From an uncultured Methanosarcinales archaeon (GTDB lineage: Archaea; Nanobdellota; Nanobdellia; Woesearchaeales; JAGWAF01): a DNA stretch of 64,000 nucleotides. How positions within the stretch are numbered: position 1 is the stretch's first letter; each line of letters opens with the position of its first letter. Below are positions 551-19,207 of this stretch, one piece after another. The DNA lies in assembly GCA_964597775.1 (NCBI GenBank), contig CAZQZJ010000001.1, forward strand, positions 6,033 through 70,032, given 5' to 3'. A model generated the notes under the pieces. It made no database searches, had not been told where the DNA came from, and worked only from the letters and a program-made list of their open reading frames with translations. The translations under genes and the position numbers were made by a program.

Positions 551-1039
551 TCATGCTGGTTTCACCACTTTAATGGTTGCATCTGCTATTCGATCAGTTC
601 TGTCTCGTATAATAACAGGAACAGTGGTTATATTATAGTGAATACCTCCAGGTCCTGGTATGCTGATTTGTTCAATATATCGTCTAAACCAGTCTTTATT
701 GTAATAAAACACGTGATTTTCAATGGTTATTTCTGCTGCTATACTCTCTGGTTTTGAGTAACGAATATGGTTGAGTAATTCTTCTTCAAGATTTCTTAAG
801 CCAAGTTTTTCAGCATCGATAACTCCCATGCTTGGTCTGTTTGTAATTGGATCAATATAGATTAATGCTGGATCAGTTAGAATTCTGGCAGTGAGTAGTT
901 GCATCTGGGCATGGGTTGTATCTACCTCTGCTATGGTGTTATACATAATAATTGTTGTGATTCCTGTAATCACTGCAATAAGATAGATAAAGCTCCAAAT
1001 CCATCCAATAGTCCAGCTTGATAAGGTTCCTTTGCTCAT
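551..1039 (-). CDS. hypothetical membrane-anchored protein, distal gene of the amidase operon
   Basis: 162-aa ORF with an N-terminal hydrophobic helix (WTIGWIWSFIYLIAVITGITTII). Its start overlaps the stop of the upstream Amidase_3 gene by 4 nt (ATGA-type overlap). Confidence 0.4.
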   Translation of the reverse strand: MSKGTLSSWTIGWIWSFIYLIAVITGITTIIMYNTIAEVDTTHAQMQLLTARILTDPALIYIDPITNRPSMGVIDAEKLGLRNLEEELLNHIRYSKPESIAAEITIENHVFYYNKDWFRRYIEQISIPGPGGIHYNITTVPVIIRDRTDRIADATIKVVKPA

Positions 1040-2061
1040 TGTAATGCCTCAGTTGCATGTCTAATAGCTGTACCAAATGCTGCAGCGTGTTGTTGTAAAT
1101 ACGTTGTTTGTATTGGTGTATCCATACTTCCAAGTTCAATATAAACACCTACAGGTGTTGCTTCAAGAATATGTCTAGTATCATAAAGCTCAAGATGTGA
1201 TGGATCAATAGGAACAATCGCTGTGTGAGCAAGTCCTTCAATATCACTAAGGCTATTAATGATATTGCATGCAAGTGCTGCACTTTCAGATGCCTTGCTA
1301 CTTGTTGCATCGATATAAATCACTGCACTATATGAAATACTTCCTGTATGGATGCTGATAAGTGGTAGTTTAGCTTGTTGTATTGTGGCAATCCGTGCAG
1401 CTGGAGAAATGTACTGGTCAGTGGTTGTATCTCGTGTTGTTGGAAAATTGCCGAATTTGCCAAGTGACACTATTTTTCTTGTGATCTCTGCTTCATTACT
1501 AGGACCTTGTACTTCTCCAGTATCAATTTTGTTGAGACCATCAGAAAGTCCTCCGTGTCCTGGATCAATGATAGCAGCAGTAGGCTGATAGATAGGACAA
1601 CGTTGTTTTGCAAGTAATGGTTGTGTTGCAAAATCCTTAGTTGGTGTGATTGTAATGCTTTTTCCATTTTTGAGAAAAAAAATACTCTGTGGTTTAGATA
1701 AGATGCCTGTATTCAGATTGTAGAGTGAGGAAGAAGCATATGAGGAACGCATATCTCCAACATGTTGTTCTCCAGTCGGAGTAGAGATTACTTCAGTTGT
1801 GTGAATATCTGAACCTAGCTGGTACCAGAATCTGTTAAGGCTAATTGGATTGTAGTAGTAGGCAATATTAGATGGTATAGTGTTTATTATAGTCATGAGA
1901 AGTCCCATGTCTGTAGTGATGGCTAATTTGTCAAAGTAGGTGCTTTCATTTAATGGTTTGATAAAAAATCCAAAGAGTGCTGCGCCGATAGTAATGGCAA
2001 GAACAATTTCAAAAAGAACCATGGTGATGTCAAAGAGTTCGCTTTGTCCGCGTTTGTTCAT
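1036..2061 (-). CDS. membrane-anchored N-acetylmuramoyl-L-alanine amidase (Amidase_3 family) domain protein
   Basis: The N-terminus MNKRGQSELFDITMVLFEIVLAITIGAALFGFF is class-III-signal or TM-like. The C-terminal half shows the Amidase_3 hallmarks: IIDPGHGGLSDG (viDaGHGG.DpG), TRDTTTDQYISPAARIATIQQAKLPLISIHTGS (TRdsD...slfiSiHaNa) and VYIELGSMD (vLvElGFisN). Confidence 0.65.
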   Translation of the reverse strand: MNKRGQSELFDITMVLFEIVLAITIGAALFGFFIKPLNESTYFDKLAITTDMGLLMTIINTIPSNIAYYYNPISLNRFWYQLGSDIHTTEVISTPTGEQHVGDMRSSYASSSLYNLNTGILSKPQSIFFLKNGKSITITPTKDFATQPLLAKQRCPIYQPTAAIIDPGHGGLSDGLNKIDTGEVQGPSNEAEITRKIVSLGKFGNFPTTRDTTTDQYISPAARIATIQQAKLPLISIHTGSISYSAVIYIDATSSKASESAALACNIINSLSDIEGLAHTAIVPIDPSHLELYDTRHILEATPVGVYIELGSMDTPIQTTYLQQHAAAFGTAIRHATEALQ

Positions 2062-3587
2062 GTTTTTATGATCCCTTTGCAGCTGTTTTGCAGTTCTATG
2101 TCTGTCTTATTTTTTTCGCAAAGTATAGTAATAGCTTCCTGTAATGTAATGCGTTTATCTCCTATACTAAGATCAAAACTAGGTTGTTTGTTAATAAGAG
2201 TAGAATATTCTCTAAGAGATTCGCGTGGTTTATTTTGTTGTCCAAATGCATATCCAAGCTGAAACCTTGCATAGTTAAGCTGAGTACTAGAAGGATATAT
2301 GTTGATATAGTGTATTAGTTTTTCTGTAGCCATAGCCCATTTTTCAGTATCAAATGCAAGACTTGCGCGTAGATAATCAGCTTCTTCTGATGTTGGAAGA
2401 GCACGAACTTGTTCATGTATAGTTTGTATTAATTTTTTGACTCGTTGTTGTTCTGCAAGGTTTTGTGATTGTTGTAATTTTTTGATGTTATCCATGGCAA
2501 TTTGTAATGCTTGAATCTGTGATTCAATATTAGGTGATTGAGCTGCTTTAATCAGGAGTTCGACTGCATCAGCAAGAAGAATTGGTTGTGGATTTTTCAT
2601 ATCTTCTTGTTGTATTGTGGAGAGTTTGAGTTTTGGATAAAGGGTTGTGATGACAATTGGTGGTGATTGGCTAAAATCAAGAAGAGCTTGTGCAGCAATA
2701 GTGTACACTGATGAAACTGTTTCAGGTTCATCAGATCGAATTTTCCAGAATTGGTGTGCATCTGTAAAGAGTTGTTCATACTTTTTGCGTACTAAGAGAT
2801 TTTCAAAATCAGCTGGTTCAATCTGATATTTGATTCGAAGATAGTCTGCGCGTTTGGATTCTTCTTCGCGTGCAGCTCCAATCATGATATATGTTTTGTC
2901 TTTGATAATAACTTTTTCTATGTATACGTTGCGTGTGTTCCAAACAGGTGTTGTTTTTTCATTTGTTATTCTTGAGTGTCCTACTGTAGAAACTGTTGTG
3001 CACTGTCCCATGAGTATGGTGTCAGCTGGTCTAGGAAGATACTCAGGAACATAAAATTGAGTAAGGCTATCATCAGCAATACCTCTAAAATTGTCAAGAT
3101 ACTGCTCTTCTGGTTTGAGTTCTATGGTGCTAAAACCTGTTAAGCGATATGCTGGTGACCAGATAATTGTTATATTCTTTAATAAAACACATTGAGCAGG
3201 TTGGTCACGCTTGTGTACATCAACAATACAAAGACAGCTTATACCTTCCTGGCAAGTCTTTGGTCTATTGATATACAATGTTTTTCTACAATTTCCTCGA
3301 ACAAATGCTGTAGTTTTGCCAAATCCTACAAGGGTTAGTTCAGGATCAATAAAATATGGCATTGTTGTTGTAGCTACCTTGTTTTTATTGTTAAGAAGTT
3401 GTGTAACTGCAGTGCTAAGGCTTCTAAGGTTCTCAAGTGATGTTTGGTGTGGTGGTGCTGTTAAGATAGTAGCCACGTCTCCAGCAAAGAAGACAACCTT
3501 ACTAAATATAAAAAAGATTAGGACTAGCACAAGCATTTCTATATTTATTTCGATTATACCTAAAGAGTTTTTTCTTCTCAATTTCAT
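2058..3587 (-). CDS. hypothetical membrane-anchored protein with TPR-like C-terminus (first gene of the amidase operon)
   Basis: 509 aa with an N-terminal TM (MLVLVLIFFIFSKVVFFAG) and a C-terminal helical TPR-like segment. Its stop overlaps the amidase start by 4 nt. Confidence 0.45.
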   Translation of the reverse strand: MKLRRKNSLGIIEINIEMLVLVLIFFIFSKVVFFAGDVATILTAPPHQTSLENLRSLSTAVTQLLNNKNKVATTTMPYFIDPELTLVGFGKTTAFVRGNCRKTLYINRPKTCQEGISCLCIVDVHKRDQPAQCVLLKNITIIWSPAYRLTGFSTIELKPEEQYLDNFRGIADDSLTQFYVPEYLPRPADTILMGQCTTVSTVGHSRITNEKTTPVWNTRNVYIEKVIIKDKTYIMIGAAREEESKRADYLRIKYQIEPADFENLLVRKKYEQLFTDAHQFWKIRSDEPETVSSVYTIAAQALLDFSQSPPIVITTLYPKLKLSTIQQEDMKNPQPILLADAVELLIKAAQSPNIESQIQALQIAMDNIKKLQQSQNLAEQQRVKKLIQTIHEQVRALPTSEEADYLRASLAFDTEKWAMATEKLIHYINIYPSSTQLNYARFQLGYAFGQQNKPRESLREYSTLINKQPSFDLSIGDKRITLQEAITILCEKNKTDIELQNSCKGIIKT

Positions 3588-3703
3588 AGTATTCTTCTTC
3601 AGAAAAATGGTATATAAATGATTCCTTCTAAATGGTGTTGGTCAAAATGTGTCACTGGCTTTTTTATAGTATTTTTGGTGTACTTGTTTAGCTCCACAGG
3701 CAT

Positions 3704-3916
3704 GGCAGGAGCGCTGGCGTGGGACGCAACAAGGTCGCATTTCGACCTTGTGCACAGCGAAGCCGAAGGCTTCGATTGTGTCAAGATGCGAGCACTGTTT
3801 TAATGTAATGCGCAAATCCGACGAGGTTCCATGGAGGAGGATTTCTTAGCATAGTGATATGAAGTGCGAGCGACGTCCCATTTTTGCGCAAGCAAAAATA
3901 AGCCAGCGCTCCTGCC
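3704..3916. ncRNA. GC-rich structured element, candidate ncRNA of unknown class
   Basis: A sharp GC-rich island in an AT-rich genome. A 15-bp closing helix ggcaggagcgctggc (3704-3718) pairs with gccagcgctcctgcc (3902-3916). A nested helix gggacg/cgtccc and internal hairpins (caaggtcg..cgaccttg; cgaagcc-gaa-ggcttcg) are also visible. Only short overlapping ORFs on both strands lie here. Confidence 0.3.
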
Positions 3917-4027
3917 TTCAAAGAGGAGTTAAACAAGTACGTTTTTGGTTACGAGATAAAGACCCTTCTTTATAGGTATCTTCTTGGGATATACAACTTT
4001 TTAAATCTTAGAAATATCCTGAATACT

Positions 4028-4903
4028 ATGAACAAAACATTAACTCTTAGTCTCACTGGACTGCTCAGCTTATCACCACTTCTGGCAGAATCCCCTTACA
4101 TTCCTTCAGCAAAAACTCCGCTTATCTCTTCTTCTAGGTCTCTTGAAGCAAGGATTTTGCCACATGCCAAGATATGGCAGCTTCAACATGTCCCAAAGCT
4201 ATATCAGCCCACCACAGTTTATATTATTGCCCAAGAACATTTCCAAAAAGGGTTGAGTTTGGAAGGAAAAGAAATTCCCTACATCGAATCTCATCTTGCA
4301 CAAGTCCAGGCACAAATCTACAAAACCCTTGAGATTCTTGTCAGTCTTAATCATATACGTCTTATTATAGGTGAAGGGCTTCCGCCAGGGGTATATGATC
4401 CATTTGCCAACATAACCCCAGATCAAAGAAAGATTTTTTTATTAGAAAAACAAGAACACCTCTATGATCTCACACAAATTAATTACCTAACTAAGGTATT
4501 CAAACTTAATCCGCTGACTCTATCCTATCAGTTTTTTTCCCAAAACAATCCTGGTGTTATGGTTTATGGAATTAATGATGCTTCCCTTCTTACTAAAGGG
4601 TTTAGTTTAGACCGCGAATTCTTAGACTTTGCTAGAAAAGGGGAATTAGATAAAAGATCGCAAAAGAGAATGCAGGAAATTTCGCAAGAAACTAGTCGAT
4701 TAAATAAACAAAGGTCAGAACAAGCTGTACTAGAAGGGTTCAGTATAGCCAACCAACTCTTCAAGAGCAGGAAAATAATAAAAAAAGACCATATTCACGT
4801 TATCGGACTTGGGCATGTCAACGAAATGGCCAGAGTTTACGAAAAGATTGAATGTAATGTAGTTTTGATTATTCCGTTAGCCTGCAAGTATCTTTATGAA
4901 TGA
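4028..4903 (+). CDS. secreted hypothetical protein (signal peptide), atypical codon usage
   Basis: 291 aa with the signal-like N-terminus MNKTLTLSLTGLLSLSPLLAESP. Codons end in C far more often (ctc, ctg, ccc, ttc) than in neighbouring genes. Confidence 0.5.
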   Translation: MNKTLTLSLTGLLSLSPLLAESPYIPSAKTPLISSSRSLEARILPHAKIWQLQHVPKLYQPTTVYIIAQEHFQKGLSLEGKEIPYIESHLAQVQAQIYKTLEILVSLNHIRLIIGEGLPPGVYDPFANITPDQRKIFLLEKQEHLYDLTQINYLTKVFKLNPLTLSYQFFSQNNPGVMVYGINDASLLTKGFSLDREFLDFARKGELDKRSQKRMQEISQETSRLNKQRSEQAVLEGFSIANQLFKSRKIIKKDHIHVIGLGHVNEMARVYEKIECNVVLIIPLACKYLYE

Positions 4904-4945: not shown

Positions 4946-5452
4946 TTATGCAAATACAGATACTAGTGTAAATGGTTTTTTTGTGCATGGTATTGGATTA
5001 TCTATAAACATCTTTGAAGGGCTTATGCATTTGCCCTTCTCTACTTCTACAGTACACTTGTTTTTAGTACGTTCTGTTGGGTTAAGATCACATGCATCAG
5101 GCATGCCATCTTCATCTTTATCACATTGATTTGATCCTCTTGCTTGTTCAAGAGCAATCCCTGTCTTGCCTCCTCCAAGTTGTGGAAAAATACAAAAGTC
5201 ACAGCTATCTGGTGCACAGTCACCATCTTTATCTAGATTGCTAATTGCACAAAAACCATTAGTCTGAGTTAAACCTCCTTGAATTACGCAGGATGTATAT
5301 CTCTTTCCTGAATCAAATACAGAAAGTTGGGTTGAAATTGTGTTCGAAGGTTTTGTAAAAATATGAAAAAGAACAATCACAACAAGCATGCTAAGAACAA
5401 AAATTGCAATAGTCTCAATTGAGAGTCCTTGTCCTTTCTTGTATAGCATCAT
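4946..5452 (-). CDS. pilin-like protein (class III signal peptide) with thrombospondin-type-3-like Ca-binding motifs
   Basis: MMLYKKGQ|GLSIETIAIFVLSMLVVIVLF is the archaeal prepilin pattern KG(Q) followed by a hydrophobic helix. Motifs DKDGDCAPD and DKDEDGMPDACD follow, and the protein is Cys-rich. Confidence 0.55.
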   Translation of the reverse strand: MMLYKKGQGLSIETIAIFVLSMLVVIVLFHIFTKPSNTISTQLSVFDSGKRYTSCVIQGGLTQTNGFCAISNLDKDGDCAPDSCDFCIFPQLGGGKTGIALEQARGSNQCDKDEDGMPDACDLNPTERTKNKCTVEVEKGKCISPSKMFIDNPIPCTKKPFTLVSVFA

Positions 5453-5700
5453 ATCTTATCAAGACAGCAGGTTCTCTTTTTTGAGTCCACATCTGAACAC
5501 GAGTAGGATATAGCTTTAAGTTGACAATTCTTGATTTGTTCAGAATCCTGACATTCTCCTCCTTTTTCTTCGCATCCAGATAATCCTGTTGAGAATTTGC
5601 CAGTTTGTCTTGTGAGGATAATACCAATAACTAACAAAATAAGTAGAACCAGGACAGCGACTACAATTGTTGAGAGTGCGAGTTCTTGGGCTTTACGCAT
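5449..5700 (-). CDS. small Cys-rich pilin-like protein (class III signal peptide)
   Basis: MRKAQELALSTIVVAVLVLLILLVIGIIL at the N-terminus, followed by a short Cys-rich globular tail. Confidence 0.55.
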   Translation of the reverse strand: MRKAQELALSTIVVAVLVLLILLVIGIILTRQTGKFSTGLSGCEEKGGECQDSEQIKNCQLKAISYSCSDVDSKKRTCCLDKI

Positions 5701-6276: not shown

Positions 6277-7185
6277 TTATTTTTGACGTGAGATACCAAG
6301 TTCTGTGCAGCCTAATTGTTCAAGTTTTTGTTTGGTAAGTGGTACAAACCATGTTGATGCATACCATTGGTATGGGGTGTTTTTTAGATAGGCTAATACA
6401 GCTGCATATGCTGTGCTTCCTGTGGCTAGGATTCCTCCTGCTGTGGCAATGGTGAGTCCTGTTGTTGTACCTATAATTGGGATGACACTCATTATAAGGA
6501 TGCCTGCCTTGATCATGCCATATCCTGCAACCATGCCTGCTGCTCCTGGTGCTGCTGCTTCAAGATTTGTCATAAATATTTGAGTCATCTCGCCACGGCC
6601 TTTTGCATAGACAATGATTGTGGCATAGAGATCCTGTACTGCAGGGTCTATCATATCAGGTAGTTGTTTTCTGTTTTCCTCAATCTTATCAAGTTGCTGA
6701 CTTGTAAAAGTTGTATATCCACTAAGGTATTCTGCATAGGTGTGTTTGTTGTTTGGCATTTTGGTGGTGAGAAGATAGGTATTTAGTCCAGTAAGTGGTG
6801 TTGTTTTATCCTTAAATTCGATATAGGAACAAATTCCGCAATAGATGCCACTTCCTGCAAAAAGTTCTAGTTTGCCTTGGCCAAATCTACTCCAGCATGA
6901 TGTCATAGTTTGAGCAATGTCATATCGTGTTTTGTGCTGGGCTTCTTCAGATTGTATATCATTAATATACAGATTTTCAGTATCACAAGTAATTGCACTG
7001 CCAAAATCAAAGGATTTGGTGTGTAGCAGGGCTGCTTTGTAGATGCTATCCCGGCAGATCTCTGTTGGAATGCCAGATTCAACTGTTGAGAAAAGTTGGG
7101 ACCAATAGTAAATAGCAAGAAATAATGTGATAATTAAGATGATGATTCCAAGTGTTGTCTCATTGATGATATTTGCACGTTTCAT
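6277..7185 (-). CDS. pilin-like surface protein, paralog A
   Basis: The likely true start is the internal Met (MKRANIINETTLGIIILIITLFLAIYYW). It is paralogous to 7182..7940, sharing the conserved central Cys pair YCGICSYIEF / FCILCSRITT. Confidence 0.5.
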   Translation of the reverse strand: MKRANIINETTLGIIILIITLFLAIYYWSQLFSTVESGIPTEICRDSIYKAALLHTKSFDFGSAITCDTENLYINDIQSEEAQHKTRYDIAQTMTSCWSRFGQGKLELFAGSGIYCGICSYIEFKDKTTPLTGLNTYLLTTKMPNNKHTYAEYLSGYTTFTSQQLDKIEENRKQLPDMIDPAVQDLYATIIVYAKGRGEMTQIFMTNLEAAAPGAAGMVAGYGMIKAGILIMSVIPIIGTTTGLTIATAGGILATGSTAYAAVLAYLKNTPYQWYASTWFVPLTKQKLEQLGCTELGISRQK

Positions 7186-7940
7186 GCTAATGGCTCTGGT
7201 GTTTTTTGGTCTGGTAGTTGTTGATGAAACTCTGTGCAAGCAAGTAGTGGTATTTTAGTAGTTGGTAGAAATACTAGATGTGATTCAAATTTCTCTTGCA
7301 GTCTATTGATTGCAATTATATCATATGAGGTTTCTTTATTAATAGTTACTAGATCTGGTGCAGGGTTCTCGTTTGGAAATGGAAGTGTTTCTTGTTGTTG
7401 TGGATTAATAAAAAGGTGGTATAGTGCCTCAGTTCCCCATGTTGTGGAGAGGATTTGGGTATATGTTTGTTTGTGATTAGGTGGTGTTGTGCTGCGCAGG
7501 TATTGTTTTAGTTGTATGCTTGGTAGTGTGGTGCTTGTTGTAATGCGTGAGCAGAGAATGCAGAATGTGCCTGTGCCAATGCCTTGTGTTTGATATCCTA
7601 TCTTGTTGTTATTGCCATTTGTTTTATACCAGCATTCCCTAAGATGTTCTGCAATCCTAGATTTAATATTAAGGCTATCATCTCCTATAAGGGTTTCAAC
7701 ATGTGCTTCGCAGTTAATTCCTGGGTTTGATAATACTAGTTTTCCTGCTTTTCCTGCTGCTGTACTAATTTTGTTAAGATATTCAGTCTTAAGTCCTATA
7801 CTCAATTTGCATCGTGCATCTCTACTAATCTCTTCGTGGGACTGGGTGTATTTTTGGACCATGACAACTAAAGCAAGGATAATAATAAGGGGAACAATAA
7901 AATTAAGAAATGTGATTTGAACGGATTGCGCTTTCTTCAT
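7182..7940 (-). CDS. pilin-like surface protein, paralog B
   Basis: The N-terminus is MKKAQSVQITFLNFIVPLIIILALVVMV. It is a paralog of the downstream gene. Confidence 0.5.
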   Translation of the reverse strand: MKKAQSVQITFLNFIVPLIIILALVVMVQKYTQSHEEISRDARCKLSIGLKTEYLNKISTAAGKAGKLVLSNPGINCEAHVETLIGDDSLNIKSRIAEHLRECWYKTNGNNNKIGYQTQGIGTGTFCILCSRITTSTTLPSIQLKQYLRSTTPPNHKQTYTQILSTTWGTEALYHLFINPQQQETLPFPNENPAPDLVTINKETSYDIIAINRLQEKFESHLVFLPTTKIPLLACTEFHQQLPDQKTPEPLA

Positions 7941-8093: not shown

Positions 8094-8375
8094 TTACGAC
8101 CTTAGTTTGCAGCAGCAATGGGATCCTTCAGGTACATCGCTTATAAAGGCTGTAATCTCAGGAGTTTCGCTTGAGCAAGTTGTTGTCTGAACTGTACCTG
8201 AGGCATAACCACGATTTTCGCAGTTTGAATTGCATGTATTTTGTTCAACCTTGCTTACTCCAATGCCAAACTTGCCAAGTCTGCCAGTAAAGATAGCCAC
8301 AAGGACTACAAGTACAATAAGTGCTATTGCAGCAACAACAATGACTGTTACAGAAAGCTCCTGTGCCTTTTTCAT
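8094..8375 (-). CDS. small Cys-rich pilin-like protein (class III signal peptide)
   Basis: The N-terminus MKKAQELSVTVIVVAAIALIVLVVLVAIFTG is nearly identical to that of 5449..5700. Confidence 0.55.
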   Translation of the reverse strand: MKKAQELSVTVIVVAAIALIVLVVLVAIFTGRLGKFGIGVSKVEQNTCNSNCENRGYASGTVQTTTCSSETPEITAFISDVPEGSHCCCKLRS

Positions 8376-8441: not shown

Positions 8442-8921
8442 TTACTCAGGATTTCTATCTTGCACCCATTCTGCATATTGTGGATTGCTCATAAAGTCTT
8501 GCTCTTTAATATCTTCGATTACATAGTGTGTAATCTTTTGTTTGATGCTAAACTGTGTTTCAAGTTGGTCAAAGAAGTGTTCAACCTCGCCTACATTAGT
8601 ATATATGCCTTCAAAGAGAAAGTCAAATCCGTTGTTTATTCTCCATAATGAATTAATGTTGGGGTGATGGAGTAGGTGTTGGCGTAGTGCATCTTTTTGG
8701 TTTTTATGGACGCTGATTAGGACGTATGCCTTTGTTGCAAATCCTAGCATGCCAAAATCAGCGATGATAGTATATTTTTTGATAAAGCGCGCTTTGAGTA
8801 GTCTTTCATAGAGGGTAGAAACTGGTATACCTGTTTTTTTGCTCATCTGGGTTAATTGCATACGTGCATTGTTGCGTAAATGGCATAAGATCATCGTGTC
8901 TTTTTTGTTCATGGTATTCAC
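8442..8921 (-). CDS. Lrp/AsnC family transcriptional regulator
   Basis: The HTH_AsnC N-terminus (ILCHLRNNARMQLTQMSKKTGIPVSTLYERL) is followed by a RAM-like C-terminal domain, 159 aa in all. Confidence 0.75.
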   Translation of the reverse strand: MNTMNKKDTMILCHLRNNARMQLTQMSKKTGIPVSTLYERLLKARFIKKYTIIADFGMLGFATKAYVLISVHKNQKDALRQHLLHHPNINSLWRINNGFDFLFEGIYTNVGEVEHFFDQLETQFSIKQKITHYVIEDIKEQDFMSNPQYAEWVQDRNPE

Positions 8922-9043: not shown

Positions 9044-9955
9044 ATGCAAAGACGAGCTATTCAATTAGCAAAAAATACTATTGTTATCTCTTTGCCATCC
9101 TCATGGATTAAACAAAAAGGAATTAAAAAAGGGGATGAGTTACGTGTGGAAGAAAGTGCAGGTTCTCTTGTTATTAGTACAGGCGCACAACAAGAGATAA
9201 AGAGACGAGTAGTAGATGCAACAGGTCTTACTGAGAGAACGCTGCGATGGGCTTTATCAGGATTACATAAACAAGGTGTTGATGAGATCGAAATCCAATA
9301 TGCCAACCCATTTACAGTACAGATAGTTCAGGATTTGATTCGAGACACCTTTCTTGGTTTTGCCTTGATTTCGCAAAAAGATAAGTCATTAGTTATTCGT
9401 CAGATCTCTCGTGATGCAGATGACCAATTTGATGTTGTGTTTAGAAGATCGCTGCTTGTAACCCTTTCTCTTACAGAAGGATTTGCTGATGCTCTGCAGC
9501 GCAAGGATTGGGAAGAGCTGACAAGTCTTGAATATCTGGAAAAAACAAATAATCAGCTTACTAATTTTTGTATACGTCTTATTCACAGAGGAGAAGCAGG
9601 TGCAGCTTATCCAATGATGTATCATACATTATTATGGAATATGGAAAAAATCGCTGATGAATACAAGCATATGATTCATAAGATTCCTAAAAAGCCTATT
9701 GTGCAAAGTCAGATAGTGCAGGCTATGAATGATACAGCAAGTCTATTGAGGTTATTCTATAACTGTTTTTATCAAGGTGATCTTAATAGTGTGAATGATG
9801 TTGCAGATAAGCGTGCTGCTCTGCAACACACTGTCCAAAACCTGTTGCATTCGCAACATGGATTTAGTAGGGATCTTGCACATCATACTCAGCAGGTTAT
9901 TACAAGAATTGGGGATCTTTGTTCATGTCTTGCTTCTATTCGAACCTATGGTTAA
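9044..9955 (+). CDS. AbrB/SpoVT-domain plus PhoU-like regulator
   Basis: The N-terminal swapped-hairpin motif (AIQLAKNTIVISLPSSWIKQKGIKKGDELRVEE) is followed by a helical PhoU-like region. This is the archaeal PhoU-homolog architecture. Confidence 0.45.
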   Translation: MQRRAIQLAKNTIVISLPSSWIKQKGIKKGDELRVEESAGSLVISTGAQQEIKRRVVDATGLTERTLRWALSGLHKQGVDEIEIQYANPFTVQIVQDLIRDTFLGFALISQKDKSLVIRQISRDADDQFDVVFRRSLLVTLSLTEGFADALQRKDWEELTSLEYLEKTNNQLTNFCIRLIHRGEAGAAYPMMYHTLLWNMEKIADEYKHMIHKIPKKPIVQSQIVQAMNDTASLLRLFYNCFYQGDLNSVNDVADKRAALQHTVQNLLHSQHGFSRDLAHHTQQVITRIGDLCSCLASIRTYG

Positions 9956-12997: not shown

Positions 12998-15900
12998 TTA
13001 TGCTGTTATCACCAAACTCGGGCTAATGCTTCCCTTATTATTTAATATACCCTGGATCTTGATTCGTCCGTATCCTCCTCCTCCTGCTCTTGCATTCCAT
13101 CCTATTCCCCCAATGCCTCCTTGTGTTGCAATTGATGATGTTGCGTCAAGGCTTACATTTCCAATAAGATAGATTGAGCCTCCTGATCCTCCTCCTCCTC
13201 CAAATGCTCTTTTTTCAGATACTAGGCTTGAGTCATTTCCTTTGTCCCCATTTGCGTTTATCTGTGCTGAGCGTAGTTCAATAGTGTCTGCTATTAGTTT
13301 GATTCCTCCTCCTCCTGATCCTCCTTCTCCTCCAAAGGTTTGGATAGGTCCACTACAAGGGTTTCTACGTGTTGCCAATGTGCAGTGTTGCATGCTTGAT
13401 CCCCTGCCTCCTCCTGAGCCAAGTTCAAGTGTAGGTAAGTCTGGGTTTCCATAGGTTGTTCCTCCAGGTGCTGCTTGGGTTGATTCACCTTGGGTTGCGT
13501 GTCCTGCTCCTCCTCCGCCGCTGCAGAAATTATCATCATGTGTTGTGCCTGCACAGCCTTCGCAACAAAAGCTAGTTGGTGGATCGCTTCCAAGACCTGG
13601 TCCTGTGCCTGCAGTATGTCCTATGCCATTTGCTTGGATTTGAGTATGGTCAATAAGAATGTGTTTTGCAATAATAGTTAGTGTTCCACCTGTACTATTT
13701 GAAAATTGTTGTACTTGGATAAGTGTATTATTTCTAAGAATCACTTTATTGTATGGTCCTAATGTGCCGTTGAGGATAACATTTTGGTTATCAATGATAA
13801 GGTCTAGAAGGCATTGTTGTTGTTGAGTGGGTTTTGTGGATGTTGTTCCACAGTTATTATTGTCTGTGCAGATTCGTGTTTGTATGTTATTAAGGCATGT
13901 TCCAAAACTTGTGCATGACCAAGATTCTGTGCAGGTGCATGTCTCAATCTCTTCTGGTTTGTTTTTTGTTGTTCCACAATCATTAGTATCTGTACAGGTT
14001 CGTGTGCGTTTTCTGTTAGTTGGGCATGTTGTTGGTTGGAATGGTGTGCAACTCCATGATTCTGTGCATCGTGGACTTCCTGAGCAGCTAAATCTTGTTG
14101 CTGCATCTAGTCTATAGGTAGTAAAGGATTTTACATTGAATATAACAGTATCTTTAAGATTTGAGACTTGGCTGCACATATAGTTTGGGCATTCGACAAA
14201 CATGCCATTGTCATCAGCGTCTCGTCCTGGCATAGTGCCTTGTGCTTGTGAAGAATTCATACGCAGTATTGCGCTTGTATTAAGTCCTGGTGCATAGGTA
14301 GAATTAACAAAGATATGGTTCATTGTAAGGTTGATATAGGTAAGTAGTGGTACCTTGAGACTAAAGTTTGTTTTTGCTGTGTAATTAATAGATGATCGTG
14401 CCCATGATTCAATAAGTACAGGTGGTGGTGCTAAGGTGTTAGTGATTGTGGTGTTGAGTGTGTCTGTTAAATATAAAGATGTTCCGTGCATGTTTTCAAA
14501 TGTAATATCTGAGATAATATTATTTTTTCCAGTACTTAAATTGATTCCTAGCATAGATGATGTGATGTTGATATGATCAATTGAAAGGTTGGTTATGTTT
14601 GCAATCTGTAAAGCAATGCTAGTATTGGCTATACGCGTATCCTTCACTACCACATTTTGGCTATGAGAAATAACAATTCCTTCATTAGGATTAATGATAG
14701 TGTTATTAGCAAGGATAATTGTATTAGCATTACCTGTGATAAGAGTTCTAGAATTATTAAATATGTTGCCAAGAATAAATAGTTTTGAAAGATTTGATCC
14801 CCTAAGATCAAGAGCATATGCTCCTGTTTGAGTTAAGAGATTTGTATTACTAAGAAATGTGTTTGCTATGATGGTTGTGTTTTCTCTAAATCCGCTATTA
14901 CCAAAAGAAATCGCATATCTATCGCATCCAATGAAGATATTGTCTTGAATTAGGGTGTTGTTGATGTTTCTATTGCCTGGGATAAAATCCTCTATGCAAT
15001 CGCTTCCAGTGCCTGGTAAACTCGAGAATGAATTATTCTGGATAGTCAAACCAATAATATTTCCTGAGCCAAATGTAATTCCACGGTCTGTTGAATTACC
15101 CAAAATATTTCTCCGAATCATGGTGTTATTAAGCTCACCAGATAAAATCACAAAATTAGGCGAGCGAAGGATAGTATTATTCTCAAAAAGCGTGCTATTG
15201 GCTGCGCTAAGAGAAAGTGCTGAGCGAAAGTAGCCTCCAATGCCAACAACGCTAAAAAGATTGTCTGTGATTTGAGCCCCTATCATGGCGCCTAAAAGGT
15301 CGATACCTGTTGTGTCTATATTCAAGAAAGTGTTGTGTATCAATCTTGGTGCAAGAGTTTGTGCTGCATTAATAACAATTCCTGTTGTACAATTTGTAAA
15401 TCTGTTGTTGTTAATTATTAATGGCCCATTAATACTTAGGCTCAGGCATCCTCCTGCAATATTGCTTATGTTATTATCAGTAAATTGGAATAAGCCAGTA
15501 GTACTTCCCTGTCTTATGCCTGTAGAAACTTTGGTTCCAATAAAGGTATTATTCACGATAATATCATTGCCTTTAACTGAGAATATTCCATTTATTAGTG
15601 TGTTGTTAATAATAGTCCATTGACTGCCTAGTTCACAGAATATACTGCAGTTAATAGTATTATTGATGAGAAAACCACCAGGAGAGGTTATATTAAGACT
15701 CTTACTAATCACGTTATGAATTAATGATATAGTATCAAATCTTGAACCTTCTGAAATTGAGTCTATTCTGCTTAGTTGAATTATGTTATTATATGATGGA
15801 AAATTGTCATTTTTTTCTAGTGTAACAGAATCTGCTACAACATTTGAAATAATACTGTTGTTGACGTTTTTTCCAATAGAAATGCTTATGCTACTATTTT

Positions 15901-18900
15901 TGAGTTCGCAATTGCGAACAGTCACGTCTTTAAGATTGTCAGAAATATTTAGAAGTGTTCCTAAGCCATTTCCGCGAATGCTAAATCCATTGCAATCAAA
16001 AAATATATTGTCAGCTTTAAGAATAAAACACGAGCCATTCACAGACATATTTTGATTAAGGGTTATATTAGTAAAAATTGAACCGCAGCCAGTTTCCTGT
16101 GCAGAGTAGGTTGTGAAGTGTGTAACATCAAATTTGAATAAGCCTGCTGTGTTTGAGGTGTTTTGGCATATGGATTGTGGGCATGATGTGAAGATGTTGT
16201 CATCCTCAAAGTCTACAATTGGTTGTGGTGTTGTGTAGCTTAGGTTTAAGATGATAGTTCCGCTAGCATTAAGTTTTGGTTCTAGTGTGGTGTTTGCAAA
16301 TGCTTTGTTGTTTGAGATGTTGAATCGTGTTGTGTCTGCAAATTCTATGCCTGAATAATTAACTCGGTTAATCTGAATGCGTCCAAATTGGTTGGCTTTG
16401 GCTATGTTTGGGAACGGTTTGATGCTGGCATTGGTGATGTTGATGAAGTTCTGGAACTCTAGTGTGATGTTTCCTGTTGGTGCTGCTGCGTTTGAGCTGT
16501 TGGTGGCAGATAAGGTTCCATTGATAATAAGGCTGATGCTGGTGATGTTGATGTTTCCGCCTGATCCTCCAATTCCTGCTCCGTTTGCTGAGATTGATCC
16601 TGTGATATTGACTGTGCTTGCGTTGATAAAGATGCGGCTTGCCTTGCCTATTTTAGCGTTTGCAGTAATACTTCCACGAATATCCAGCGTGTTTGCAGTA
16701 ATACTAATGTTGCTTGGGATGCCAAAGCCGGCACCATTTGGGCTTTGTGGTTCGCCAATTAGTGTTCCATTGATAAGGATTTGGTTTGCTGTGATGCTAA
16801 ATAATGGGATTGTTATGGCATTTGCGAAATTTCTTGTGCCTCCAAAAAATCCGCCCATAATCGAATTTGTTGGTATAAGTAGGGATTCAGTGAGATTGAA
16901 TGTAATAGGTGGTGGAATAAATGTATGAGAATATTCATAAAATCCTAACCTGACACCATTCTTAAGCATTAGGCTTCTGCTATTTACAAAGAGTCCGACA
17001 AGAGTGCTGTTACCTTCAATAAAGATGCGTTGTGCACTAATAATTGCTGTTCCTGTGCCATTGTGGATAATACCTCCCATATGGTCTGTTCTATCTGCTG
17101 CTTGAAGATCTGGGGTAAGGTTAAGAATATCGACTGATAAATTGATTCCTGCGTTAATGGTTCTAATACGTGCCTTGTTTTTGATTGTGAGGTTTCCTAG
17201 ATTTATTGTTCCGTTGAGTATGCATGATCTGCCTTCAAGTACTGCTTGTTGTCCATTTGAGAACTCGCAAGATCGATGTGGCATAACAAGGTATGCAGGG
17301 TCTGTGGGGCTGGTTATATTAAGATTAGTAAAATTAAGAAAGATTGATCCATCAGGAGCAAATACTGCTATGCCAACTCCAATTGCTCCGACTGCTCTAA
17401 GTGATGAACTGATGTTGAGGAATTTTCCTGCAGTGAGGTTGATGATTCCTCCAGATCCTGATTCTGCTGCACCATATCCCCCATTTGTGTTTATGCTTCC
17501 ATTGATAGTGATGTTCTCAGTTGCAATGATATGGATTGCCCCTCCAGGTCGTCCTTCATAAAGTCCACCGCTGGATGTTGCCTGGCTATTAATTTGACCG
17601 CGAAGATCTAGATCATTAGCAATGATTGTGATGTTTCCTCCACTGCCAGGATAACTGCCTTCATGTCCATTAGACCTAATGGTTCCATTTATTTTAACAA
17701 AGTTTGCAATAATCTTGAAATCAAGTCCTCTTGTAAAATATGAGTTTATGTTATCTACTCCTCCTGGAAAGTTTCCAGCGATGCTTCCATCACTTTGAAC
17801 AAGAAGGTTTCCAGTCATGTTAATAATTGTTTGAGAAATAGTTTCAGTTCTTTTTGCCTGTCTTCTCCAGGTTGTTCTAAGTGTTATGTTTGGTGGGATG
17901 ATTAAGGTGTTGTTAAGGTTAAAGTTGATGCCTTGCAATGAGTTTTCGATCAAGTTATAAAACGGCTTATTAAGGTTGATTCCTCCTGCAGTTACTGTCA
18001 TGTTTCCGCTTCCATTGTGGCTAATCCCTCCTCCTGTAAGGTTGAGTGTATCAATGATGGTGAGGTTAAAGCTCTGGGCATCAGTAAAAAGTAAACCATC
18101 TCCTAGGATAGTTAGGTTATTGACTGTCATGTTTCCTGTTTGCATGCATCTGGTGTTGTTGATGATTGCTTGACTGCTTGGTGTTAAAAGGCAGTTCATT
18201 CCTGGAACAAGGTAATATGCTGGAGAAGTATAGGCTGATTGGGAAAGTGTGCTGTAATTAAGAAAGATTCTTCCATGCTCAACATATCGTGATGTTGCAT
18301 TAATACTTCCATTAATAATAAGTGTTGTTGCATTGATGTGGATAATCCCTCCTCCACTTCCAGTTCTATAAATTACAGGAACCATTTCCATAGCATAGAT
18401 TCTTCCTGTGAGGTTAAGGTATGATGTATTGATTCTGATGATTCCTCCTCCATAGGTATTACCAGAGTCAGATGCCTGTACTCCTGATGATGTGATTGTT
18501 CCTAAGATGTGGGTGCTATTGGACTGAAGCAAGATGGTTCCTGGTGCACCTATAACGTAAATATTGATATTATCATAGGATCTGCCATTTGCATTAATTG
18601 ATCCACTTACAAGAATGGTTGTTGCTGTGATATTGATGATGTTTCCTGCTGGTTTAGTTGTAGAGATTGATCTAGAGGTGATAATTCCAGTCTCGCTGAT
18701 ATTTAGCAATTCTCCAACAATGATGTCTATCCTTCCATGTTTTTCATCATCCCGAATTGTTCCTGCAACAATCATATTCTGACTCACATTAATTGTAATA
18801 TTTGCAGGAGTTGCATTAATCACCCCTGTTGATGTAATGGTAAGATTAACAAAATTCAAAGATCCATTAAGGAATTTGGTGGTAGTGATAATGCAGTTTG

Positions 18901-19207
18901 TTTTTTCATCGCCACTATCGCAAGAAAATGCGTTTTGTTGTTCATTGTTAAATATATTAAATCCAAATAGCTTAAAAGAAAACATTCCTGAGGGAGAGGT
19001 ATTGGTATTAGTAAATAAGGTTGATTGCAAGCGTGCTTCTCCAATTTGATCTTGGGTTTCTTGATATGGGTAGAATAATGAGATTAGAATAAGTAATAAG
19101 ACAATGCCTATTTCATATTGAGTTTGATGTATGTCTCTGCTTCTTACTCCTGATAATATTTTATTCTTTTTCATAGAGGATGGTCTATAAACTATTCCTT
19201 TTTCCAC
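12998..19207 (-). CDS. giant (about 2069 aa) surface protein with right-handed parallel beta-helix (pectate-lyase/NosD-like) repeats, Cys-rich CxESWxC modules and a Gly-rich C-terminal repeat
   Basis: The ORF-track start is a GTG. The likely start is the internal Met (MKKNKILSG...IGIVLLLILISLF) at about 19174. The protein contains many N-x-T/S-rich beta-helix rungs (NNTIINPNEGIVISHSQNVVVKDTRIANTSIALQIANITNLSIDHINITSS...). Repeated 40-aa modules (CTESWSCTPFQPTTCPTNRKRTRTCTDTNDCGTTKNKP) are shared with gene 19218..20282. The C-terminus is GGGGSGGSIYLIGN-like Gly-rich. Confidence 0.7.
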   Translation of the reverse strand: MEKGIVYRPSSMKKNKILSGVRSRDIHQTQYEIGIVLLLILISLFYPYQETQDQIGEARLQSTLFTNTNTSPSGMFSFKLFGFNIFNNEQQNAFSCDSGDEKTNCIITTTKFLNGSLNFVNLTITSTGVINATPANITINVSQNMIVAGTIRDDEKHGRIDIIVGELLNISETGIITSRSISTTKPAGNIINITATTILVSGSINANGRSYDNINIYVIGAPGTILLQSNSTHILGTITSSGVQASDSGNTYGGGIIRINTSYLNLTGRIYAMEMVPVIYRTGSGGGIIHINATTLIINGSINATSRYVEHGRIFLNYSTLSQSAYTSPAYYLVPGMNCLLTPSSQAIINNTRCMQTGNMTVNNLTILGDGLLFTDAQSFNLTIIDTLNLTGGGISHNGSGNMTVTAGGINLNKPFYNLIENSLQGINFNLNNTLIIPPNITLRTTWRRQAKRTETISQTIINMTGNLLVQSDGSIAGNFPGGVDNINSYFTRGLDFKIIANFVKINGTIRSNGHEGSYPGSGGNITIIANDLDLRGQINSQATSSGGLYEGRPGGAIHIIATENITINGSINTNGGYGAAESGSGGIINLTAGKFLNISSSLRAVGAIGVGIAVFAPDGSIFLNFTNLNITSPTDPAYLVMPHRSCEFSNGQQAVLEGRSCILNGTINLGNLTIKNKARIRTINAGINLSVDILNLTPDLQAADRTDHMGGIIHNGTGTAIISAQRIFIEGNSTLVGLFVNSRSLMLKNGVRLGFYEYSHTFIPPPITFNLTESLLIPTNSIMGGFFGGTRNFANAITIPLFSITANQILINGTLIGEPQSPNGAGFGIPSNISITANTLDIRGSITANAKIGKASRIFINASTVNITGSISANGAGIGGSGGNINITSISLIINGTLSATNSSNAAAPTGNITLEFQNFINITNASIKPFPNIAKANQFGRIQINRVNYSGIEFADTTRFNISNNKAFANTTLEPKLNASGTIILNLSYTTPQPIVDFEDDNIFTSCPQSICQNTSNTAGLFKFDVTHFTTYSAQETGCGSIFTNITLNQNMSVNGSCFILKADNIFFDCNGFSIRGNGLGTLLNISDNLKDVTVRNCELKNSSISISIGKNVNNSIISNVVADSVTLEKNDNFPSYNNIIQLSRIDSISEGSRFDTISLIHNVISKSLNITSPGGFLINNTINCSIFCELGSQWTIINNTLINGIFSVKGNDIIVNNTFIGTKVSTGIRQGSTTGLFQFTDNNISNIAGGCLSLSINGPLIINNNRFTNCTTGIVINAAQTLAPRLIHNTFLNIDTTGIDLLGAMIGAQITDNLFSVVGIGGYFRSALSLSAANSTLFENNTILRSPNFVILSGELNNTMIRRNILGNSTDRGITFGSGNIIGLTIQNNSFSSLPGTGSDCIEDFIPGNRNINNTLIQDNIFIGCDRYAISFGNSGFRENTTIIANTFLSNTNLLTQTGAYALDLRGSNLSKLFILGNIFNNSRTLITGNANTIILANNTIINPNEGIVISHSQNVVVKDTRIANTSIALQIANITNLSIDHINITSSMLGINLSTGKNNIISDITFENMHGTSLYLTDTLNTTITNTLAPPPVLIESWARSSINYTAKTNFSLKVPLLTYINLTMNHIFVNSTYAPGLNTSAILRMNSSQAQGTMPGRDADDNGMFVECPNYMCSQVSNLKDTVIFNVKSFTTYRLDAATRFSCSGSPRCTESWSCTPFQPTTCPTNRKRTRTCTDTNDCGTTKNKPEEIETCTCTESWSCTSFGTCLNNIQTRICTDNNNCGTTSTKPTQQQQCLLDLIIDNQNVILNGTLGPYNKVILRNNTLIQVQQFSNSTGGTLTIIAKHILIDHTQIQANGIGHTAGTGPGLGSDPPTSFCCEGCAGTTHDDNFCSGGGGAGHATQGESTQAAPGGTTYGNPDLPTLELGSGGGRGSSMQHCTLATRRNPCSGPIQTFGGEGGSGGGGIKLIADTIELRSAQINANGDKGNDSSLVSEKRAFGGGGGSGGSIYLIGNVSLDATSSIATQGGIGGIGWNARAGGGGYGRIKIQGILNNKGSISPSLVITA

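Follow-up and report, generated by a model that had tools for sequence, protein, structure and literature searches.

A pilin-like Amidase_3 protein family in a conserved operon of DPANN archaea: a putative surface device directed at bacterial cell walls

DPANN lineages make up about half of archaeal diversity, and those in culture live on archaeal hosts. Elsewhere, the murein hydrolases flagellar FlgJ, T4SS VirB1 and phi29 gp13 (M23) are mounted on a filament or needle and open the wall locally. The Sulfolobus 'bindosome', reportedly described by Zolghadr and colleagues in 2007, is said to consist of sugar-binding proteins with class III signal peptides that form an oligomeric surface assembly and are not filament pilins, these nutrient-binding proteins having a dedicated Bas assembly system.

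Murein hydrolases are already known from archaea, including Woesearchaeales, through reports published in 2021-2025. Strock et al. 2025 found archaeal peptidoglycan hydrolases (PGHs) to be prominent in Nanoarchaeota and read them as acting on bacteria (PMC12352652); their set, which includes Woesearchaeales LysM+Amidase_3 and LysM+SLT proteins (S2 table), has a patchy, HGT-like spread and Sec/Tat signals and is viewed as a set of secreted weapons (PMC12352652). To count as a modular PGH there, a protein must have a catalytic PGH domain and, in addition, one or more recognised Pfam domains for cell-wall binding (PMC12352652). For giant SLT surface proteins of Woese- and Pacearchaeota, attachment to or degradation of bacterial walls has been proposed (PMC8204110; PMC9723730). 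The case for these archaea living on bacteria has hitherto rested only on such isolated lytic-transglycosylase genes. Modular type IV pilins, such as S. sanguinis PilB and PilC, are described from a survey of bacteria only (Raynaud et al. 2021, PMC8179133). A literature search found no description of the pilin-like amidase family or operon reported here.

The material was a 64,000-nt stretch of DNA (the window) from a minute groundwater DPANN archaeon without a bacterial-type cell wall, with the gene 2 region as the main subject. The original prediction had placed a membrane-anchored amidase in a three-gene operon; by ORF and sequence reading, the operon instead comprises at least five genes linked by ATGA overlaps, including that between genes 1 and 2, extends past the window start, and lies within a conserved block of approximately 15 genes. 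Its features are listed below, a slash marking the end of the basic leader.

3611..3618, minus strand: TATA-box-like element TTTATATA, centred 27 nt upstream of the gene-1 ATG (sequence reading)
2058..3587, minus strand: gene 1, 509 aa (ORF); N-terminal basic stretch and hydrophobic helix, C-terminal TPR-like region at aa ~380-470
1036..2061, minus strand: gene 2, 341 aa; pilin-like N-terminus, conserved N-module and Amidase_3 domain
1960..2061, minus strand: gene 2 aa 1-34, leader and helix, candidate class III / prepilin-type signal
1585..1959, minus strand: gene 2 aa 35-159, family-specific N-module; helix 42-61, then beta-sheet 66-140
1039..1584, minus strand: gene 2 aa 160-341, Amidase_3 catalytic domain
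551..1039, minus strand: gene 3, 162 aa; MSKG/T... and hydrophobic helix
1..554, minus strand: gene 4, first 184 of 201 codons inside the window; ...NSRG/F... and hydrophobic helix
past the window start: gene 5, 395 aa, MKKA/F...
4946-5452, minus strand: 168-aa protein, MMLYKKG/QGLSIE..., upstream cluster member sharing the N-terminal pattern
5449-5700, minus strand: 83-aa Cys-rich protein, MRKA/QELALSTIVV..., upstream member of the conserved cluster
6277-7185, minus strand: ~302-aa protein, MK[KR]A and hydrophobic helix, paralogous to the 252-aa protein
7182-7940, minus strand: 252-aa protein, MK[KR]A and hydrophobic helix, paralogous to the ~302-aa protein
8094-8375, minus strand: 93-aa Cys-rich protein, MK[KR]A and hydrophobic helix, further cluster member
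8442..8921, minus strand: AsnC/Lrp-type HTH regulator, upstream border of the cluster, kept in L006, L009 and L011

The TATA-like element is a candidate promoter of archaeal type, from which the operon would be transcribed as a leaderless mRNA. Matches of gene 1 to TPR/YbgF/BamD-type models are weak and under cutoffs, and its orthologue in the related locus L011 has clear TPR Pfam matches.

Gene 2 almost certainly encodes an Amidase_3 homologue with an intact site. Its score against PF01520 (28.4 bits against a gathering score of 27, E 2e-6, profile positions 2-168 of 174) is marginal alone but bears out the predicted identity in an archaeon, and a profile built from 80 family members matches AmiC-type proteins of bacteria at 1e-12 to 1e-14 and, at 6e-18 to 3e-16, Amidase_3 chains of solved structure, the C-terminal domain having the Amidase_3 alpha/beta fold. 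A single-sequence phmmer search against the PDB gave only E values of at least 0.03, with the Glu misaligned. The zinc ligands that had been predicted are present in the alignment as an H-E-H triad, His169 (1555-1557), Glu190 (1492-1494) and His238 (1348-1350), aligned with the GHGG His, the E-x-x-x-x-x-x-I-A Glu and the S-I-H His of Cwp6, LytH and 4rn7; the catalytic Glu309 (1135-1137), in YIELGS, aligns with LLELGY / LIECGF. The N-module (motif FEK..LA.D.AL...PGN) ends at the conserved Cys155 (1597-1599), which pairs with Cys265 (1267-1269), and this pair is kept in 136 of 141 members (96%). By sequence, the N-module had no match in the PDB, nor, when searched alone, in a database of 5.8 G proteins. 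Since PF01520 was the sole domain detected in gene 2 by Pfam, with LysM, SPOR, PG_binding, SH3 and AMIN domains absent, the protein falls outside the modular PGH definition of Strock et al., which includes a binding domain. With its N-terminal hydrophobic helix, also as predicted, the protein very probably displays its catalytic domain outside the cytoplasm, and peptidoglycan is a likely ligand or substrate.

Searches with the single sequence found one non-self match among 5.8 G proteins, and a GTDB scan with a four-sequence alignment matched two genomes; exhaustive profile searching recovered approximately 341 divergent cluster representatives of fixed architecture. Gene order and chromosomal position of the block, which adjoins RPA and RadA, are kept across distant relatives, and on these sequence comparisons the amidase family is an old, syntenic and vertically inherited lineage. 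Gene 1 orthologues of 650-711 aa occur in L008, L009 and L011 (BLAST 1e-65 to 1e-85) and gene 4 orthologues in L008, L009, L012, L007 and L013, while the gene 3 partner lies directly downstream of the amidase gene in all loci (BLAST 1e-40 to 1e-6) and is fused to the amidase in P0120 of L012, where gene 2 aa 444-617 match gene 3 at 1e-8 to 3e-42. The gene 5 slot carries an SLT domain (73 bits) in one locus, L011, and Peptidase_M23 (47-57 bits) in three others, and the N-module of the window's gene 5 is homologous to the N-termini of the SLT- and M23-bearing proteins of L007 and L011-L013. Short cluster proteins are also kept across loci: the 83-aa and 168-aa proteins have homologues at equivalent positions in L006, L007, L008, L009 and L011, and the ~302-aa protein matches a 300-aa protein of L007 at 6e-28. 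Two further candidate assignments did not hold. A reading of the window's gene 5 as a hidden degenerate M23 was unsupported, as hhalign covered the N-terminal 125 residues only, and the equation of the window's 1001-aa and 303-aa genes with the 1000-aa and 304-aa genes of L006 was dropped because the large pair had no BLAST similarity. In relatives, the extended C-terminus of gene 1 shows a LAS/M15-like motif, which is kept as a lead although neither Pfam nor the PDB backs it.

The proposal that bacterial walls are the target gains from the SLT and M23 domains found in the same operon slot of distant relatives, as the presence of three hydrolase families specific to murein within a single conserved operon of archaea makes bacterial peptidoglycan the likely target, which also agrees with proposals for Woese- and Pacearchaeota (PMC8204110, PMC9723730, PMC12352652). 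The gene content suggests that archaea carrying the operon latch onto or attack bacteria.

The gene 2 protein begins MNKRG/QSELFDITMVLFEIVLAITIGAALFGFF (MNKRG/QSELF...), a basic leader ending in KRG and followed by a hydrophobic helix of ~25 residues with a buried Glu18. Approximately 91% of the family begin with [KR][KR][G/A] and a hydrophobic helix (columns K/R 91%, R/K 89%, G/A 92%), the motif fitting 136 of 150 family members as against 25 of the 96 bacterial Amidase_3 proteins that served as controls. Gln is frequent at +1, as it also is in Methanococcus-type pilins. An AF2 model from an 80-sequence family alignment has a helix at 3-39, and its predicted N-terminal helix of ~56 residues, followed by a beta-sheet, may correspond to a pilin layout. 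The N-terminal motif is common to approximately ten neighbouring small proteins, among them Cys-rich ones of 78-94 aa, the size of major pilins. The term 'membrane-anchored' therefore holds as regards the hydrophobic helix but is probably too simple for an N-terminus that fits an archaeal class III (prepilin-type) signal. Class III processing of the gene 2 protein is probable on this pattern, and its building into a real filament is possible but doubtful.

The favoured account, to which a probability of roughly 0.55 is assigned, is that gene 2 encodes a surface zinc-dependent N-acetylmuramoyl-L-alanine amidase of a DPANN (Woesearchaeota-type) family, which with at least four co-translated partners forms a murein device. 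Transcription of the five genes would be driven by the TATA box that lies 27 nt ahead of gene 1, with translation presumably coupled through the ATGA overlaps seen in the sequence. Each product would begin with a short basic leader, [KR][G/A] at its end, and continue in a hydrophobic helix. A class III (prepilin-type) signal peptidase would probably cut off the leader, and the helix would anchor each protein in the membrane or, together with its partners, in a pilus- or pseudopilus-like assembly, the C-terminal domains lying outside. The motif, together with the conserved disulfide pair and the prediction of a long N-terminal helix with beta-sheet, suggests this processing and assembly step. 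The exposed Amidase_3 domain would bind bacterial peptidoglycan, its presumed substrate, and cut the peptide stem off the glycan at the archaeon-bacterium contact, and in relatives gene 5 of the apparatus would add a lytic transglycosylase (SLT) or M23 endopeptidase. The operon overall would be a contact-dependent device that binds and opens bacterial walls, for attachment or feeding. With catalytic residues lost in about half of the family, catalysis is not a role shared by all members; what is conserved at the core is probably recognition of, or adhesion to, the wall, lysis being an addition. A fuller version is offered only tentatively and is somewhat unlikely as a whole: an ancestral, vertically inherited surface apparatus of Woesearchaeota-type DPANN archaea, made up of approximately ten prepilin-like proteins, the larger of which carry exchangeable murein-specific modules, active or degenerate (Amidase_3 on gene 2, SLT or M23 on gene 5). 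In episymbiosis with, or predation on, bacteria it would serve as a pilus tip or a pseudopilus that opens the wall and adheres to it.

It is unlikely that the N-terminus is a plain type II anchor, that is, an uncleaved signal anchor in a membrane-bound complex, with an amidase that would still target bacterial walls at the contact zone. The positive-inside rule alone could explain basic residues before a transmembrane helix; neither the 64-kb window nor, in L006, L007 and L011-L013, the DNA up to 10 kb from the operon yielded a prepilin peptidase, assembly ATPase or platform protein; and curated class III and archaeal pilin models (Pfam, NCBIfam) matched neither gene 2 nor its neighbours even at E<=5. 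These models are short and lineage-biased, so the absent match weakens the class III claim but does not exclude it. Counting against a plain anchor is the 92% conservation of G/A right after two basic residues, which prepilin peptidases need and a topology signal does not, together with the frequent Gln at +1, the recurrence of the motif on neighbouring proteins and the putative pilin layout of the model. It is distinctly unlikely that the Amidase_3 fold serves mainly for ligand binding, as the Amidase_2 fold does in non-catalytic PGRPs, and that the window copy, with its residues intact, is chiefly an adhesin. Within the family, the metal triad is intact in 58% and the full H-E-H-E set in only 52%, against 96% for the disulfide pair; the catalytic Glu is missing in relatives such as P0002 and P0007, the L007 amidase is degenerate, and L006 retains the operon with an R-E-R-E amidase and no other hydrolase. 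However, all four residues are kept at 34-41% overall identity by the window protein and throughout its subclade (P0009, P0011, P0013), which indicates selection on catalysis there, and distant members beside active SLT or M23 domains keep them too; judged by these residues, the window copy is of the catalytically intact type.

An enzyme directed at the archaeon itself or at an archaeal host, remodelling an envelope polymer such as a pseudomurein-like or other glycopeptide layer as bacterial division amidases do with LytM and TPR partners, is improbable. Amidase_3 with a degenerate or active M23 and a TPR protein does mirror the bacterial AmiB-EnvC and LytH-ActH modules, and the archaeal hosts of cultured DPANN would suit such a role, but pseudomurein is without the MurNAc-L-Ala bond, SLT, M23 and Amidase_3 combined are murein-specific, and no Mur ligase, MraY, MurG or PBP genes were found in the 64-kb window. 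The core-like, vertical operon at a fixed chromosomal position, set against patchy weaponised PGHs (PMC12352652), also favours it, whereas no archaeon has ever been found to contain murein, and the enzymes that cross-link and recycle it are absent from archaea (PMC10117817). A recently acquired, diffusible antibacterial weapon or defence gene, such as a secreted bacteriocin-like lysin from a bacterial donor, is very improbable, although bacteria-killing archaeal PGHs of bacterial origin are documented (PMC12352652) and the Amidase_3 domain has a bacterial distribution. Identity between the gene 2 domain and its closest bacterial counterparts does not exceed 27%, against 35-47% inside the family, and with the vertical, syntenic character of the family this makes a traceable bacterial donor, which a phylogeny had been expected to reveal, unlikely; the NJ tree, of seven bacterial domains aligned end to end and without support values, shows only the absence of a close donor. 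The 341 divergent representatives with fixed architecture and synteny beside RPA and RadA also speak against such a weapon, as do the absence of any known wall-binding domain and of a cleavable Sec or Tat signal pattern in the gene 2 protein, whose long hydrophobic helix argues for retention and against secretion. The suggested defence role was rejected, as PADLOC had no match for genes 2-5 and one insignificant coiled-coil match for gene 1. A viral endolysin or provirus remnant is exceedingly improbable and was likewise rejected: Amidase_3 is common among endolysins and one IMG/VR contig encodes a weak relative (27% identity) of the catalytic domain only, but tblastn against 50,697 phage genomes had no match, PHROG matched none of the five operon proteins, and the genes sit among housekeeping genes in an order kept in many genomes.

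If the fuller version of the murein device were true, it would be the first defined molecular machine of archaeon-on-bacterium parasitism, with active/inactive switching of the module tracking host range. The locus is a more specific handle than isolated genes, combining a co-translated operon, a fixed position, up to three murein hydrolase families and one unusual N-terminus, and it offers assay constructs, a marker gene set to predict bacteria-interacting DPANN lineages and active and dead variants that form a natural series. The divergent amidases, should they prove active, would also provide new antibacterial enzymes; an inert or self-directed amidase would overturn a widely repeated inference on these archaea.

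Compared with bacterial Amidase_3 enzymes (CwlV 1jwq, C. difficile 4rn7, LytH 7tj4, CwlD 7rag, AmiA/B/C), gene 2 is at most 27% identical and belongs to an archaeal host without murein; it has a prepilin-like leader and a beta-sheet module Cys-linked to the catalytic domain where the bacterial enzymes have AMIN, SH3, CWB or LysM targeting domains, and, unlike them, approximately half of its family is catalytically degenerate. With the PGHs of Strock et al. it shares a murein-hydrolase catalytic domain in archaea, but the gene 2 family has no binding domain, a pilin-like N-terminus and a syntenic, vertical multi-gene operon. The giant SLT proteins have lineages and a proposed role in common with the amidase operon, and the L011 gene-5 protein carries an SLT domain; the reports on them (Castelle 2015/2021; Vigneron 2022) concern single large proteins, the amidase family, M23 variants, N-terminal motif and operon being undescribed there. 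Prepilin-type signals on functional surface proteins are reported for the 'bindosome' and proposed here, where the proteins are hydrolases with assembly genes not found nearby. FlgJ, VirB1 and phage tail lysins target either the wall of the cell that makes them or the host of a phage, whereas the operon belongs to an archaeon without murein. Modular type IV pilins would have in common with gene 2 a class III-type leader, a helix, a small pilin-like module, a C-terminal functional domain, pilin gene neighbours and an expected position at the filament tip. Gene 2 differs from them in its archaeal leader, [KR][GA] with no G/FTLxE, in a pilin fold and filament that are only predicted, and in its grafted module, an enzyme for another organism's wall.

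In the 341-aa product of gene 2, the C-terminal half contains IIDPGHGGLSDG, TTRDTTTD, ISIHTGS and YIELGS, the motifs from which an Amidase_3 murein amidase had originally been predicted, and the assignment was upheld by a Pfam match to PF01520 (E 2e-6, profile positions 2-168 of 174) at 28.4 bits, just over the gathering score of 27; there was no match in NCBIfam. The zinc ligands H169, E190 and H238 are all retained along with E309, and the catalytic domain (approximately 180 aa) matches CwlV in size and lacks a blocking insert of the AmiA/B/C type. This establishes the Amidase_3 homology, the fold and an intact active site; amidase activity is predicted. That the carrier is an archaeon is borne out by genes in the window for FEN-1, a two-subunit archaeal PheRS (alpha subunit labelled ‘MAG: ... 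[Nanoarchaeota archaeon]’ at NCBI), a PAN-like AAA ATPase, RFC, aRF1, RNase P p30 and a tRNA-splicing endonuclease, with RadA just outside. Also in the window, at 46468-48527 on the plus strand, a phosphotransacetylase gene (PTA_PTB, 326 bits) adjoins one for acetate kinase (324 bits); together they make up a Pta-AckA acetate pathway of bacterial type, uncommon among archaea.

The original prediction placed the amidase in a three-gene operon, and the three ORFs are present exactly as located, with an ATGA start/stop overlap at both junctions. Longer contigs that represent this genome (L001-L003; 0.2-um-filtered Hainich groundwater, ENA ERZ1292639) show two further genes, of 201 aa and 395 aa, beyond gene 3, again with 4-nt overlaps, and the operon is therefore a unit of five genes, not three, presumably coupled in translation.

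Genes of the operon within the window
3587-2058, minus strand, gene 1, ORF of 509 aa
2061-1036, minus strand, gene 2, ORF of 341 aa
1039-551, minus strand, gene 3, ORF of 162 aa
554 to the window edge (open), minus strand, gene 4, 201 aa in full

The centre of a TTTATATA box falls 27 nt ahead of the ATG of gene 1, a spacing that would be expected for an archaeal promoter with a leaderless transcript. Between the gene-1 start (3587) and a divergent gene (4028) lies a strongly structured GC-rich element (3690-3930; up to 58% GC against approximately 37% for the window), with folding z-scores of -10.0 on the minus and -8.3 on the plus strand, closed by a perfect, single-copy 15-bp inverted repeat, GGCAGGAGCGCTGGC (3704-3718/3902-3916). 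It has no Rfam match even at E<=1 and contains no tRNA, and it is missing from the related locus L009, in which 57 nt separate the flanking genes; it is a candidate unclassified ncRNA or small inserted element.

When 5.8 billion proteins were searched with a word index, a sole non-self relative of the gene-2 protein was recovered (P0002, 25% identity); an exhaustive HMMER search with a two-sequence profile recovered 341 cluster representatives, 86 of them at E<=1e-10. Almost all have lengths of 300-380 aa and matched from end to end, so they form a genuine family of fixed architecture. The gene-2 protein begins MNKRG-QSELFDITMVLFEIVLAITIGAALFGFF, and the family alignment has K/R (91%), R/K (89%) and G/A (92%) at positions 3-5, most commonly as KRG, KKG or KKA, followed by a hydrophobic helix of approximately 25 residues with a semi-conserved Glu/Gln/Asp, Gln being the most frequent +1 residue. 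By a simple rule, this motif fits 136 of 150 family members versus 25 of 96 bacterial Amidase_3 proteins. Basic residues and G/A preceding a hydrophobic helix are typical of archaeal class III (prepilin-type) signals, as in FlaFind-type motifs and Methanococcus pilins, and the family N-terminus follows this pattern. The predicted model of gene 2 (helices 3-39 and 42-61, then beta-sheet 66-140) is consistent with a pilin-like module. The N-terminal pattern is shared by all four of the remaining operon products and by approximately five upstream neighbours, among them Cys-rich proteins of 78-94 aa, the size of major pilins. Pilins of modular design are already known from bacteria (Raynaud 2021, PMC8179133).

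Gene order was compared across eight independent loci in related genomes (L005-L009 and L011-L013). Wherever contigs were long enough, the conserved cluster starts with an AsnC-type regulator, short Cys-rich proteins and proteins of approximately 250-310 aa, continues through genes 1 to 5 and ends with RPA, YdjM, RadA and TRAM. Gene 1 has an N-terminal helix across loci, with a TPR region in several, and genes 3, 4 and 5 have homologues across loci. At L012 a single reading frame joins the amidase to gene 3 (P0120, 10001-11854, 617 aa, in a cluster of five sequences from several assemblies), with aa 444-617 matching at E 1e-8 to 3e-42. This natural Rosetta-stone link suggests a joint function for the two proteins. 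One caveat is that the fused part still has a hydrophobic helix of its own, a puzzling topology; an indel at the ATGA overlap is a possible alternative cause.

Around the cluster, an AbrB/MazE-type (SpoVT-AbrB) N-terminal domain protein of approximately 303-314 aa adjoins the AsnC-type regulator on the upstream edge of the cluster in both the window (9044-9955, plus strand) and the distant L011 (2151-3095), and these two proteins may act as a conserved pair of regulators for the cluster. The otherwise conserved pilin-like cluster is split by a gene on the opposite strand (4028-4903, plus strand), whose 291-aa product has a Sec-type signal peptide (MNKTLTLSLTGLLSLSPLLAES...); it has no Pfam match, and L008 and L009 have no counterpart at that position. 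Just upstream of the cluster are two giant predicted surface proteins on the minus strand, of 2069 aa with right-handed beta-helix/NosD repeats (12998-19207) and of 1945 aa (22375-28212), which combines Ig-like domains with bacterial TSP3 repeats (117 bits); a TSP3 giant also adjoins the cluster in L013, and both window proteins may be part of the same cell-contact region. The L009 record (CAYHWL010000001.1) bears the title ‘uncultured Methanosarcinales archaeon’, which is probably a wrong taxonomic label on a TPA MAG, as L009 carries the full Woesearchaeota-type cluster, syntenic with the window, and an amidase 37% identical to that of the window.

The N-terminal module of gene 5 is common to all loci (hhalign 93.7%; BLAST), with a variable downstream part.

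Downstream domain of gene 5 and state of the amidase active site, by locus
L011: SLT lytic-transglycosylase domain, 73.2 bits, AQES...GLMQ intact; amidase intact
L013: Peptidase_M23, 54 bits, HxxxD and HxH intact; amidase intact
L012: Peptidase_M23, 46.7 bits, HxxxD and HxH lost (degenerate); amidase intact
L007: Peptidase_M23, 56.7 bits, HxxxD and HxH intact; amidase degenerate
Window, L008, L009: no recognisable hydrolase domain in gene 5, second hydrolase absent; amidase intact
L006: no recognisable hydrolase domain in gene 5; no competent hydrolase whatever

One conserved archaeal operon thus carries three unrelated murein-specific hydrolase families, all with the same N-terminal pattern, and this is the strongest evidence pointing to peptidoglycan as the ligand. 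Gene-1 orthologues in L008 (3750-5774), L009 (6052-8004) and L011 (7819-9954) are 140-200 aa longer than that of the window, with motifs in the C-terminal extension resembling LAS/M15 (VanY-type) murein peptidases (NGHVAGMAVDV...YDEAPTHF; in L011 ...NAVDYH...GLGIYPTWNSKGFHLDNR) that have no Pfam or PDB sequence support; if real, the extension would add a fourth murein-hydrolase type.

Active sites have been lost in many members, H-E-H-E being present in only 74 of 141 and the metal triad in 82, and across loci the operon scaffold is more conserved than its chemistry. Wall recognition or adhesion (or surface-structure assembly) is the more likely common denominator, with lysis variable. Within the subclade of the window amidase, the full active site is kept at 34-41% identity, which implies selection for catalysis there. 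The domain identity, active-site residues, operon structure, synteny and joint occurrence of SLT and M23 are demonstrated; we infer the topology, processing and complex formation of these products, together with their substrate and biological role.

In decreasing order of weight, the alternatives begin with a plain signal anchor in place of a pilin-like signal, which has perhaps one chance in four and would leave the remainder of the model intact, and a chiefly non-catalytic adhesin, somewhat less probable. It is rather unlikely that the target is a polymer of the cell itself or of an archaeal host; core-like inheritance and a divisome-like composition would fit this, but archaea lack murein and its recycling enzymes (PMC10117817), and all three hydrolase families are murein-specific. 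A diffusible weapon or defence gene, acquired by recent transfer, is very improbable, given that bacterial domains are at most 27% identical to that of the family and that there was no PADLOC match, and a viral endolysin is less probable still. The original observation is partly confirmed, its features being real and its operon extent wrong, and the original interpretation is partly supported: the Amidase_3 identity and active-site residues stand, and the proposed defence role has no support.

Its core idea is not new. Modular PGHs occur in approximately 5% of archaeal genomes, prominently in Nanoarchaeota, and two haloarchaeal PGHs kill a bacterium (Strock et al. 2025, PMC12352652); giant SLT proteins have been proposed for attachment to, or predation on, bacteria by Woese-/Pacearchaeota (Castelle et al. 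2021, PMC8204110; Vigneron et al. 2022, PMC9723730); and some family members, such as MBI4449162.1 (Candidatus Woesearchaeota), are already auto-annotated ‘N-acetylmuramoyl-L-alanine amidase’. Within the searchable literature, nothing was found joining class III signal peptides, archaea and amidases, and amidase-bearing pilins are unmentioned in a 2026 survey of archaeal type-4 filaments and a 2019 archaeal ‘dark matter’ paper; the prepilin-like architecture, family size, half-degenerate sites and SLT/M23-swapping operon look undescribed there. The finding is unsurprising in principle, and it makes the long-standing question of whether these DPANN archaea live on bacteria directly testable with defined genes. 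Among known systems, the intact amidase and degenerate M23 of L012 resemble bacterial pairs of an amidase and a LytM activator, and the supplementary table of Strock et al. (PMC12352652) lists Woesearchaeales LysM+SLT proteins and one LysM+Amidase_3 protein, whereas the gene-2 family differs in having no known wall-binding domain, which their PGH definition requires.
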